Positions 19,549 to 64,000 are shown, numbered from the stretch's first letter. The stretch: 64,000 bases of DNA from a candidate division NPL-UPA2 bacterium Unc8 (GCA_003574845.1 NDHY01000001.1:9043-73042), one strand, 5' to 3'. Notes: generated from the sequence alone by a model not told the origin. Numbers and translations: made by a program.

Positions 19549-19577
19549 TTGACAAGCATAAGGAGACATAGTAATCT
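19549..19577 (+). promoter_or_regulatory. Putative sigma70 promoter upstream of the epimerase-trxB-aspS run
   Basis: TTGACA-N17-TAATCT; repeat arrays begin 4 nt downstream. Confidence 0.55.
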
Positions 19578-19667
19578 AACAGGCACAAAGGCACAAAGAA
19601 AATCAAAAATCAAAAGTCAAAATTACAATGCAAAATTGAAAATTAGAAATTGGTAATTAGTCATAGC

Positions 19668-19828
19668 TGTCCAAATTAGCCGTCATTACCCGGTTTAACC
19701 GGGTAATCCAGTTTTTTGCATCGACGATAGATTACATCTGGATTGCCCGATCAAGTCGGGCAATGACAGGATTGAAAATTTGATCTCAAACAGCTGTTAT
19801 CGTCGTAAAAGACTTGCTAATTTGGACA
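19668..19828. mobile_element. MITE-like element: 13-bp terminal inverted repeats enclosing an inverted GTCATT-REP doublet
   Basis: TGTCCAAATTAGC (19668-19680) and GCTAATTTGGACA (19816-19828). Inner arms GTCATTACCCGG-TTTAA-CCGGGTAATCCAG (19682-19711) and CTGGATTGCCCGA-TCAAG-TCGGGCAATGAC (19738-19767). Confidence 0.8.
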
Positions 19829-62786: not shown

Positions 62787-62847
62787 TTGACAGGGAGTAG
62801 AGAAAAGTGCTAAATTCTTATACAAGAAAGGTTGCTCGGCAACCTTT
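62787..62847 (+). promoter_or_regulatory. Putative promoter followed by a perfect 9-bp inverted repeat
   Basis: TTGACA-N18-TAAATT (62787-62816); AAAGGTTGC-TCG-GCAACCTTT (62827-62847). Confidence 0.55.
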
Positions 62848-62899
62848 AACGAAATTCATCTATTAATTAATTGTTATATTGAAAGACAATTTAAAAATT

Positions 62900-63277
62900 T
62901 GTCATTCCCCGGCTTGACCGGGGAATCCAGAAAAGAATGGAGAAAAATTATTACGTTTACATTTTAGCAAGTAAGCGAAATGGGACGTTATACATTGGAA
63001 TAAGCTCTGATTTAATAAAACGAACCTGGGAACATAAGAATAAAATTGTTGAAGGTTTTACACAAAAATACAATGTTGATAAACTTGTATACTATGAACA
63101 ATACCAAAACCCAGAGAATGCAATAAGACGAGAGAAAAGATTAAAGAAATATAACCGCAAATGAAAATTAGATCTGATAGAAAAATTCAATCCCAATTGG
63201 GAAGATTTATACGATGATATTTCTGGATTGTCCGATCGAGCATGCCCTCTGACTCGATCAGGGGTCGGACAATGACA
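62900..63277. mobile_element. GIY-YIG gene bracketed by inverted GTCATT-type REP palindromes
   Basis: Left arm TGTCATTCCCCGG-CTTGA-CCGGGGAATCCAG; right arm CTGGATTGTCCGA...TCGGACAATGACA with a 24-nt nested insert. Confidence 0.8.
62937..63275 (+). pseudogene. GIY-YIG nuclease with an internal TGA
   Basis: YYVYILASKRNGTLYIG and AIRREKRLK motifs; TGA at 63162-63164, then KLDLIEKFNPNWEDLY continues in frame. Confidence 0.85.
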
Positions 63278-63291
63278 TAAAGAATAAAAAC

Positions 63292-63348
63292 ATATAACAA
63301 TTCGCTCCAGCGAACGGCTACCGCCGTCGCTGAGCTTGGCCGTTAGCC
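63292..63348 (+). other. attC-like integron cassette recombination site
   Basis: ATATAAC...GTTAGCC cores; inner CTC(C)AGCGA/TCGCTGAG stem with one extrahelical base; 57 bp. Confidence 0.75.
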
Positions 63349-63371: not shown

Positions 63372-63557
63372 ATGCATTCAGCAAAAGAGCAGATGAGCAA
63401 AATCATTCATGAACAGCCTGATGATAGCTCCTACGACGAAGTGCTTCGTGAGTTAGCTTTTGCTCGAATGGTTGAGCGTGGTATAGAGGACTCTGATGCA
63501 AAGAGGACAATCAGCAATGTCGAAATGAAACATAGGATTAGAACATGGGGGAAATAA
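63372..63557 (+). CDS. Small putative antitoxin (partner of a RelE/ParE toxin)
   Basis: GGAGGT Shine-Dalgarno; MHSAKEQ...QPDDSSYDEVLREL...; overlaps the toxin start. Confidence 0.75.
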   Translation: MHSAKEQMSKIIHEQPDDSSYDEVLRELAFARMVERGIEDSDAKRTISNVEMKHRIRTWGK

Positions 63558-63643
63558 ACTGGACTGAGGAAGCGGAACGATGGCTCAAGGATATCCACGG
63601 CTACATAGCTCAGGATAGCCCAGAATCAGCGGTTTATTGCTAA
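63545..63643 (+). pseudogene. Truncated RelE/ParE-family toxin
   Basis: MGEINWTEEAERWLKDIHGYIAQDSPESA is a typical ParE N-terminus; it stops after 32 aa. Confidence 0.75.
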
Positions 63644-63659
63644 AAATATCATTAGCTAA

Positions 63660-63932
63660 GGGGTCGTATCAAAATAATGTTAACCATTTGCCAGAGGTGA
63701 TTTTGGAGCGAGACAAGGAATGAAGAGTGAAACGTAGCCAAAGCGCTACGGAAGCGATGAGTAACGCAGTCGCAGCCCAAAAGCGACCTGGCCCTTCGGG
63801 GAGTCCCGTCTTTGGGCCATTGCGGCGTTGCTCCTCGGTTATGTGCCACAGCGGGCACACTGCCCTCGTCGCACCTTGCACTGACCTCAAATCTGGGACT
63901 CCAAATAGTCAAGATTATTCTGATACGACCCC
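63660..63932. mobile_element. 273-bp MITE with ~31-bp imperfect TIRs and TAA target duplication
   Basis: GGGGTCGTATCAAAATAATGTTAACCATTTG versus the reverse complement of the right end GGGGTCGTATCAGAATAATCTTGACTATTTG (27/31); TAA on both flanks. Confidence 0.85.
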
Positions 63933-63989
63933 TAACACCTGACCGCTATTCCGCTGGCGCTTTTTGGCGGGTGAGTTCTATCGTTAGCA
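63933..63989 (+). other. Second, degenerate attC-like site interrupted by the MITE
   Basis: Removing the MITE restores GCTAAC...CACC(TGA)CCGC...GCGGGTG...GTTAGC. Confidence 0.6.
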
Positions 63990-64000
63990 TAAAAATTAAA

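Follow-up and report, generated by a model that had tools for sequence, protein, structure and literature searches.

The 64,000-nt window analysed here (NDHY01000001.1:9043-73042 of assembly GCA_003574845.1, from the candidate division NPL-UPA2 bacterium Unc8) contains a small GIY-YIG nuclease gene between two inverted hairpins. This block is very probably a decayed Ssn/NTS unit, that is, an ssn gene packed between two inverted cognate hairpins. The kind of unit is already known, and this specific copy is new. Below, G, L and C numbers denote genomes, loci and contigs.

The Ssn/NTS system was described by Chenal et al. (Nat Commun 2025, PMC11893778). The main text of that paper characterises four single-domain GIY-YIG proteins of the cd10448 clade, namely SsnA and three of its homologues. 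All four recognise the hairpin solely in single-stranded DNA (ssDNA), exclusively on the GTCATT...AATCCAG strand, and hydrolyse this strand a few nucleotides 5' of the hairpin; Ssn is about 95 aa long. The NTS hairpin (CGTCATTCCCGCGMAVGCGGGAATCYRG) extends the Neisseria dRS3 repeat, and a degenerate form of NTS is called SRM. At least one SRM lies near 71% of the ssnA homologues, and 42% have SRMs on both sides. The catalytic residues of N. meningitidis SsnA are Y6, Y17, and E64, and the criterion for the family is assignment to CDD cd10448 or a match to this protein at E < 1e-10. The one function shown is that SsnA of N. meningitidis lowers transformation by NTS-carrying DNA. The Discussion likens NTS-ssnA-NTS to an insertion sequence (IS), to IS200/IS605, and to the pairing of repetitive extragenic palindromic (REP) elements with REP-associated tyrosine transposases (RAYTs), and leaves open whether Ssn units are, or formerly were, mobile. 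A term search of the main text returned no mention of a translated 3' hairpin, a 29-nt loop, or an attC-like context. Literature searches found nothing on SsnA beyond this paper, and no paper linking GIY-YIG proteins with REP elements.

The window unit and its broken gene

The left arm ends at 62930, and the six nucleotides AAAAGA separate it from the ATG at 62937 (Table 1). The reading frame enters the right arm and stops there, at the TGA of 63272-63274 within AATGAC. Both features agree with the initial annotation, which had put the element at about 380 bp; from hairpin to hairpin, it measures 376 bp. Read through its internal stop, the frame encodes a 95-aa core followed by a tail supplied by the right hairpin.

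PF01541 is the sole Pfam domain of the open reading frame (ORF), covering residues 4-78 with an E-value of 3.7e-14, and no HUH/Y1_Tnp domain was matched. Intact close homologues are 104-105 aa long and fall within the range of about 90-105 aa for single-domain members. Of 8000 scored database candidates, 7994 are related to the window protein at E <= 1e-5. Residues Y6/Y8, Y19, and E66 appear to match the Neisseria catalytic residues by position. No NCBIfam model matched the protein above its cut-off (TIGR01453 gave 17 bits against a cut-off of 56). The UPF0213 GIY-YIG structures PDB 1ZG2 and 1YWL, which belong to a different subfamily, gave weak whole-domain matches (E 5.6e-4 and 7.1e-3). The search of Rfam returned only a sub-threshold group I intron match (22.6 vs 50 bits).

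The hairpins point to the same family. Positions 62900-62930, which include the left arm, match the published degenerate SRM pattern, and the 30-mer of this arm is found again in other genomes, such as G018. The long-loop form of the right arm also occurs in G006, G009, and G012 and in the tails of the homologues P0007, P0001, and P0003. The DNA-fold z-scores of the two arm regions are -4.7 and -3.1. The tag beside the stem is (C/T)GTC, without the GTAG tetranucleotide of REPs. Searched with at most one mismatch, the motif GTCATTVCCCG has six matches in the window compared with 1.69 expected, a number reached in one of 100 shuffles. Four of the six are the arms of the ssn unit and of a gene-less hairpin pair elsewhere in the window; at the other two, 31699 and 59623, a stem scan found no hairpin.

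Some observations speak against this assignment. Membership of cd10448 is deduced only indirectly, from the domain, size, catalytic positions, and hairpins. Hairpins flank the gene on both sides, but only the left one fits the SRM pattern; the right arm keeps the GTCATT/stem/AATCCAG build and fails the strict pattern through its 29-nt loop. Both arms of the gene-less pair likewise have the same build and fail the strict published pattern. In addition, the 75-aa product of the broken gene may retain residual activity, since the GIY, YIG, and Glu positions all lie upstream of the premature TGA. In alignment A1, Y6/Y8 and Y19 are invariant and E66 is nearly so, and all are present in the window copy.

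The premature TGA replaces a tryptophan codon. W76 is invariant in all 26 aligned close homologues, and W stands at this position in 158 of 161 high-scoring segment pairs. The contigs of four sequencing runs (two studies, 2017-2024) carry TGA at 63162-63164 and no other letter; two of the runs are RNA libraries, and contigs from them do not show transcription. The initial annotation hinted at this stop only by the words "repaired protein". W76, K77, E82, N85, P86, and W88 are invariant, and all stand at or beyond the stop. Because the truncation to 75 aa removes the C-terminal segment with these six residues, the TGG-to-TGA change most likely leaves a dead gene, and this copy, lacking an intact frame, is filed as a pseudogene member of the family. 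It could be argued instead that the TGA is no defect, either because a Trp tRNA reads through UGA and gives some full-length enzyme or because the 75-aa product is itself functional. The location of the stop at a Trp codon, its constancy in contigs of runs dated from 2017 to 2024, and the catalytic positions ahead of it agree with this explanation, but we regard it as highly improbable. The invariant residues behind the stop are lost, TGA is a stop elsewhere in the genome, and the neighbouring ORFs are whole under table 11. Moreover, internal stops occur in four of 160 other ssn loci, three of them at Trp codons, and the three codons read are TAG. The pattern is therefore one of ordinary G-to-A decay, and a designed leaky UGA was rejected.

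A second decayed ssn unit occurs at an unrelated site in the same genus (G001, locus L173 on G001:C40, positions 2132-2360). This copy lacks about 134 nt of internal sequence and retains Trp76. It has lost the right AATGAC end, its left hairpin is elaborated, and tandem repeats of about 95 nt follow.

Hairpins and ssn genes in other genomes

Homologous loci were surveyed in species-representative genomes of many phyla (80 loci, 53-75% protein identity, hairpin sought within 150 nt upstream). A sense hairpin lies upstream of ssn in 49 of 75 loci and an antisense hairpin downstream in 58 of 76, compared with 9/75 and 14/76 in the wrong-orientation controls and a background of 0.10 hairpins per kb more than 300 nt from the gene. 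Hairpins are present on both sides in 37 of 71 loci and on at least one side in 63. Where there is an upstream hairpin, the distance from the end of the nearest one to codon 1 is 1-24 nt in 40 of 49 loci. The downstream hairpin contains the stop codon in 10 of 76 loci and begins within 10 nt past the stop in 29 more. The 37 units that could be measured from hairpin to hairpin span 351-470 bp. The enrichment of this GIY-YIG clade between hairpin arms, which the initial annotation had proposed as a test, is thus present and exceeds the controls. GTC-tagged hairpins have their protein partner in this clade of small GIY-YIG nucleases.

Close relatives of the window protein, at 55-75% identity, are found in many phyla. 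The closest intact ones (104-105 aa) have the C-terminus ...ISGL(S/P)DQVGQ, which is the translated right hairpin, and their stop is the TGA of AATGAC. At the DNA level, the window unit has 103 matches to other contigs; none extends to the left of 62885 or to the right of 63284, and 56 begin at 62885-62904. The homology ends at the hairpins, and therefore the hairpin-to-hairpin block is the unit that is found in different contexts. In locus L146 (1417-1845), an ssn unit and the half-hairpin to its left lie between the copies of a 10-nt direct repeat, GTAGTGCGTA; this repeat, adjoining an apparent tRNA gene end, may be a target duplication.

The window unit thus shares with published Ssn/NTS units a single-domain GIY-YIG protein of about 95 aa and inverted GTCATT...AATCCAG hairpins on both sides. 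It differs in that the gene is broken by a nonsense codon, in that the 3' hairpin of its subfamily is translated and supplies the stop, with a loop of 29 nt in the right arm, and in its setting within a row of attC-like cassettes. This genome also has eight hairpins, whereas pathogenic Neisseria have hundreds. The initial annotation had suggested that small GIY-YIG nucleases play a RAYT-like role for this hairpin class. As regards the partnership with GTC-tagged hairpins, this is a rediscovery of the published system (PMC11893778); the further step, to a mobiliser, is unsupported.

The assembly (about 1 Mb, 94.7% complete) holds a single ssn copy and eight hairpins of this class. The published hairpin pattern gives seven hits in the genome, compared with a mean of 2.45 in 20 shuffles, and a solo hairpin at C1:109872-109899 is the exact Neisseria NTS consensus. 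No direct repeat of at least 7 nt was found within 130 nt on either side of the window unit, and a target duplication was looked for without success. The single gene copy, the small number of hairpins, and the missing target duplication give no sign of activity in this genome. Joints that skip the unit were absent from the contigs of the four runs, from which rare variants are dropped, so this is no evidence against excision.

Among 41 relatives, hairpins were counted as GTCATT-N12-19-AATCCAG, and ssn was sought with the 75-aa product at E <= 1e-8. These genomes are mutually related and not independent, and a single query can miss divergent ssn genes. The gene was found in 7 of the 11 genomes with at least five hairpins and in 4 of the 30 with fewer. 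With the 75-aa query, ssn was not found in G006 (104 hairpins, 84% complete), G016 (24 hairpins, 100% complete), G034 (10 hairpins), or G012 (5 hairpins); G002 has ssn and no hairpin of this pattern. The co-variation of gene and repeat number that the initial annotation had put forward is thus positive but loose, as in PMC11893778.

Particular hairpin arrangements are seen in some genomes. Many of the approximately 104 hairpins of G006, which is of the same order, belong to one tight inverted pair with a 3-nt spacer that recurs across contigs (e.g. C1:2750-2812 and C4:9780-9842). A tandem array of six 28-nt hairpins in the same orientation, mostly 38 nt apart with one gap of 79 nt, lies at G040:C6:231424-231682. 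At G000:C12:3664-3760 (reverse strand), five tandem half-hairpins (TGTCATTCCGGCTTAACAC / TGTTATTCCGGCTTAAGAT) stand directly upstream of a canonical hairpin.

Carriers of the unit

Table 1. Features of the ssn unit, its surroundings, and the gene-less hairpin pair (window positions unless a contig is named)
Feature	Position	Strand	Description
Inverted NTS-class hairpin pair without a gene	19682-19711 and 19738-19767	+ and -	26-nt spacer
Conserved module of about 85 nt upstream of the unit	62788-62876	+	hairpin AAAGGTTGC/GCAACCTTT; ends in TTAATTGTTA
Left arm of 11-nt perfect outer inverted repeat	62869-62879	.	AATTGTTATAT; pairs with 63292-63302
Left NTS/SRM hairpin	62901-62930	+ (sense strand)	GTCATT-CCCCGG-CTTGA-CCGGGG-AATCCAG; perfect 9-bp stem, 5-nt loop
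ssn (GIY-YIG) frame up to the premature stop	62937-63164	+	75 codons + TGA; Pfam PF01541, 53 bits
Nonsense codon TGA replacing Trp76	63162-63164	+	alignment with homologues; contigs of four runs
Remainder of the ssn frame and hairpin-encoded tail	63165-63274	+	begins KLDLIEKFNPNWEDLYDDISGL; ends with TGA 63272-63274 inside AATGAC
Right NTS-class hairpin	63223-63276	- (sense strand)	perfect 9-bp stem; 29-nt loop holding a nested small palindrome
First attC-like imperfect palindrome	63292-63348	+	ATATAAC...GCCGTTAGCC; 15 nt past the right arm
Second attC-like site	63930-63991	+	R''/R' pairing, local model
Third and fourth attC-like sites	C1:73470-73535, C1:74136-74193		beyond the window

The unit is followed by a row of four attC-like sites (C1:72334-74193) that share one orientation, are spaced 0.47-0.66 kb apart, and measure 57-66 nt. 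In their consensus fold, TAAC pairs with GTTA, and five pairs are changed on both sides. The local model R1 scores 63292-63348 at 58.6 bits, a sequence that belongs to the training set of the model. The genes of the row include an aspartyl-protease-like ORF, an antitoxin/ParE pair, and an NYN-domain gene, with the antitoxin and ParE in the cassette after next, as identified with Pfam. The likeness to integron cassettes, or to clusters of attC sites lacking integron-integrases (CALIN), lies in these four TAAC...GTTA imperfect palindromes, each after a small gene or a toxin-antitoxin pair. The difference is that the row has no integrase in the assembly and that its sites were recognised by eye and with a local model. 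A GIY-YIG cassette in a chromosomal integron has been reported in the literature (PMC10609294).

On the other side of the unit, 62869-62879 contains GTTATAT, which resembles an integron core site (R') and is exactly complementary to the ATATAAC of the first attC-like site, as would be the case for the halves of a single cassette recombination site. A better account of the 11-nt outer inverted repeat is the GTTA at the end of the upstream module together with the TAAC of the attC-like site. Such a repeat was rejected as a general end of the unit, since an outer inverted repeat of at least 9 nt was found in one of 37 other units compared with 1.8% in controls. The upstream module includes a promoter-like site at 62787-62816 (TTGACA, 18 nt, and TAAATT with TG), which has 10 of 12 matches in a promoter scan. 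At 80-85% identity, the module recurs in three places in G002 and in G004. In the alignment of the window with three copies, the similarity stops at the GTTA of ...TTAATTGTTA, and different DNA follows in each. The module may drive transcription into the unit, and promoter cassette, small RNA, and recombination site are candidate identities for it.

That the window unit sits in an integron-type cassette row is about an even proposition. Weighing against it, the sites were identified with a model made from eight local sites and by our own assessment of the R''/R' boxes. The assembly has no integron integrase (TIGR02249 gives at best 81 bits against a cut-off of 265, and its best matches are two Xer-like recombinases on other contigs), and the module copies in G002 and G004 are not followed by attC-like sites. 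With the narrow local model, attC-like sites were found near one of 160 other ssn loci; in this locus, L137, the ssn unit begins about 27 nt past the site.

Further attC-like sites follow small genes at C12:123196-124189 and C3:16994-17060, and a similar row is present in the same genus (G001, L174). Within the window, a repeat of about 280 bp at 63656-63937 has terminal inverted repeats of about 35 nt and is similar to a miniature inverted-repeat transposable element (MITE). It comes directly after a short, cut-off-looking ORF (63545-63643) with no Pfam hit. Copies occur at 95-96% identity at G000:C19:49071-49350 and C6:7696-7976 and at 84-91% in G008 and G012.

A different carrier is seen in G041, the draft genome that is the source of four fetched loci. 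It contains 11 dispersed ssn copies (L185-L195) with 92-100% identity, all with an open frame. Each copy is the only ORF of an element of 461-650 bp with 17-bp terminal inverted repeats, which lie 36 and 70 nt outside the hairpins and have ends of the CATAAGCGCT type. Six elements have exact 11-bp target duplications, four have duplications of 11-12 bp with one mismatch, and one has none; the target sites are G/C-rich, such as GGGGGGAGGGG. Three gene-less relatives (L180-L182, 198-225 bp) contain a hairpin pair and agree with these elements in the terminal 10 nt of the ends; exact 11-bp duplications flank two of them. Transposition of the unit has thus taken place in this genome. A parent IS was sought, and no IS-sized inverted pair of these ends was found at up to three mismatches, which in a draft genome does not establish absence. 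Six solo ends of the same type lead into short hairpin-free repeats that share only about 60-270 nt. Transposition used ends other than the hairpins, and hairpin-free elements have these ends too, which favours mobilisation of ssn as cargo by a transposase supplied in trans, although Ssn may play a part.

The initial annotation also pointed to an empty doublet at 19682-19767, and a sense and an antisense hairpin are indeed present there without a gene between them. A perfect 13-nt inverted repeat (19668-19680 / 19816-19828) encloses the pair. Its arms resemble the left and right arm types of the ssn unit, with compensatory stem changes. Judged by eye, the left arms of pair and unit are identical at 26 of 30 positions, and the two arms of the pair are 80% complementary to each other. 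The spacer has no significant likeness to the ssn unit, as 1458 of 2000 shuffles score as well. Beside ssn units (160 loci, gaps of at most 120 nt), 30 pairs are in the +/- arrangement and 35 in -/+, and the spacers of the 30 +/- pairs contain no recognisable ssn coding remnants. Internal deletion of an ssn unit was therefore rejected as the origin of the window pair, which may be a derivative, a landing site, or a plain repeat pair.

The gene-less pair and some other hairpins belong to larger repeats. At 19560-19680 and at C1:109790-109870, hairpins are embedded in mosaic intergenic repeats, in which a module beginning GGCACAAAGAAAATCAAAAATCAAAAGTCAAAATTACAATGCAAAATT precedes both the pair and a solo hairpin, and the hairpin GGTGCGACCCCGATTTGCATCGGGGCATG follows both. 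This arrangement recalls the Neisseria intergenic mosaic elements (NIMEs) or the bacterial interspersed mosaic elements (BIMEs) of enterobacteria. A 10-nt direct repeat near the pair, ATTGAAAATT, lies in low-complexity repeat DNA and was given no weight as a target duplication. A mosaic is also seen in L003 (1880-2500), with three occurrences of an 11-nt linker, CCAGGTCTTTT, each connecting an antisense and a sense arm. This linker accounts for the 11-nt direct repeat next to the L003 unit, which was rejected as a target duplication.

How the unit may move

The Ssn unit has features in common with several known systems. Like REP/RAYT, it places a small gene between inverted copies of a hairpin that is scattered over the genome, with recognition of the hairpin as ssDNA and a tag beside the stem. 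RAYTs, reportedly described in 2010 by Nunvar and in 2012 by Ton-Hoang, are HUH Y1 transposases that go with GTAG-tagged REPs. Ssn differs from them as a GIY-YIG hydrolase with a GTC tag, in contrast to an HUH/Tyr enzyme with a covalent intermediate, and its demonstrated activity is ssDNA cutting with an effect on transformation, not transposition. IS200/IS605 elements are similarly compact and have subterminal hairpins that are read on ssDNA. In these elements both hairpins act on one strand, and there is no target duplication; the inverted arms of the window unit, in contrast, predict cuts on opposite strands. GIY-YIG homing endonucleases, such as I-TevI, have the same catalytic domain and a selfish-looking spread over phyla. 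Homing enzymes of this type use a separate DNA-binding domain, cut double-stranded DNA, and are intron-borne or free-standing.

An intact Ssn would bind the hairpin as ssDNA and cut a few nucleotides 5' on the GTCATT...AATCCAG strand. As the arms are inverted, two cut sites are predicted just outside the ends of the unit, one on each strand. The hairpin-ssn-hairpin block could thus be a selfish mobile module, with the nuclease driving the spread of the block and of gene-less hairpins and pairs, like RAYT or the TnpA of IS200. The window would then hold a recently inactivated copy together with a non-autonomous pair. The route might be ssDNA nicking beside the hairpins followed by copy-repair, or a novel transposition chemistry. 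Several observations fit such a module. In about 100 unrelated contigs, the homology reaches no further than the hairpins; the predicted cut sites lie just outside both ends; close relatives are spread across many phyla; decayed copies occupy different sites in two genomes of one genus; and hairpins and ssn co-occur among the relatives. G041 adds 11 dispersed intact copies with ssn as their sole ORF, ten of them flanked by 11-12-bp duplications, in a genome where no IS-sized pair of these ends was found, as well as gene-less relatives with a hairpin pair. However, GIY-YIG chemistry is established as hydrolytic, and we know of no covalent intermediate or strand transfer in these enzymes. The G041 units end at separate 17-bp repeats, whose 10-nt termini are shared with short NTS-free repeats. 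At the window unit there is no target duplication, the outer inverted repeat is not general, the window pair has a spacer that behaves like shuffled sequence, the 30 other spacers lack ssn remnants, and no ssn was found in the hairpin-rich G006 and G016. We therefore consider an autonomous element unlikely, both for the unit in general and as the selfish module outlined above. For the window copy, the word "autonomous" used by the initial annotation does not apply, given its broken gene, the single ssn copy, the lack of a flanking direct repeat, and the cassette-row setting.

A passenger role has better prospects, and we place it at around even. The block would be immobile itself, carried here by an integron-type cassette and in G041 by a MITE-like element with terminal inverted repeats, and kept for a function in the host or the carrier, such as restricting incoming ssDNA. 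The one function shown for SsnA, restriction of transforming ssDNA, agrees with this (PMC11893778). So do the terminal repeats and 11-bp target duplications in G041, the second ssn unit next to an attC-like site in L137, and the placement of the window unit between a core-like GTTATAT and an attC-like site with the complementary ATATAAC, after which three more sites follow. Given its position at the head of the four attC-like sites, beside toxin-antitoxin cassettes, the unit may have reached its site as cargo of other mobile DNA, with a likelihood near one half. On the other hand, the narrow model found attC-like sites at only one of the 160 other loci, no integrase accompanies the row in this assembly, and a passenger leaves unexplained why cross-contig homology ends exactly at the hairpins. 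Homing-like spread is a further explanation, less probable than an autonomous element: Ssn would nick ssDNA at hairpins elsewhere, and repair from a filled copy would convert a gene-less pair, or the reverse. The resemblance of the window pair to the arm types of the unit, with its compensatory changes, is in line with this, as are the frequency of +/- pairs beside units, a gene-less pair in L003 whose left arm, together with the initial 7 nt of leader sequence, is the same as in the adjacent unit, and the existence of GIY-YIG homing endonucleases as such. But -/+ pairs are equally frequent, the spacers lack ssn sequence, filled and empty versions of one site were not found, and the identity of the left arms barely exceeds the complementarity within the pair.

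The window by itself adds one more Ssn/NTS unit, a broken one, and has little wider meaning alone. The comparison with its relatives says more about the family. In this subfamily, the 3' hairpin is coding and supplies the stop, so that gene and repeat cannot drift apart, and the end of homology at the hairpins between unrelated contigs fixes the unit that moves between genomes. Two kinds of mobile DNA appear to carry ssn units as cargo, the attC-like row and the G041 element with terminal inverted repeats. If the block is a selfish module, frequently single-stranded DNA such as that of integron cassettes and MITEs would be a ready place for it to lodge. If its spread is driven by Ssn, the G041 family would be the first IS-like element encoding only a GIY-YIG nuclease. 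In either case, the G041 family is concrete material for the question left by PMC11893778, whether Ssn units are or were mobile.

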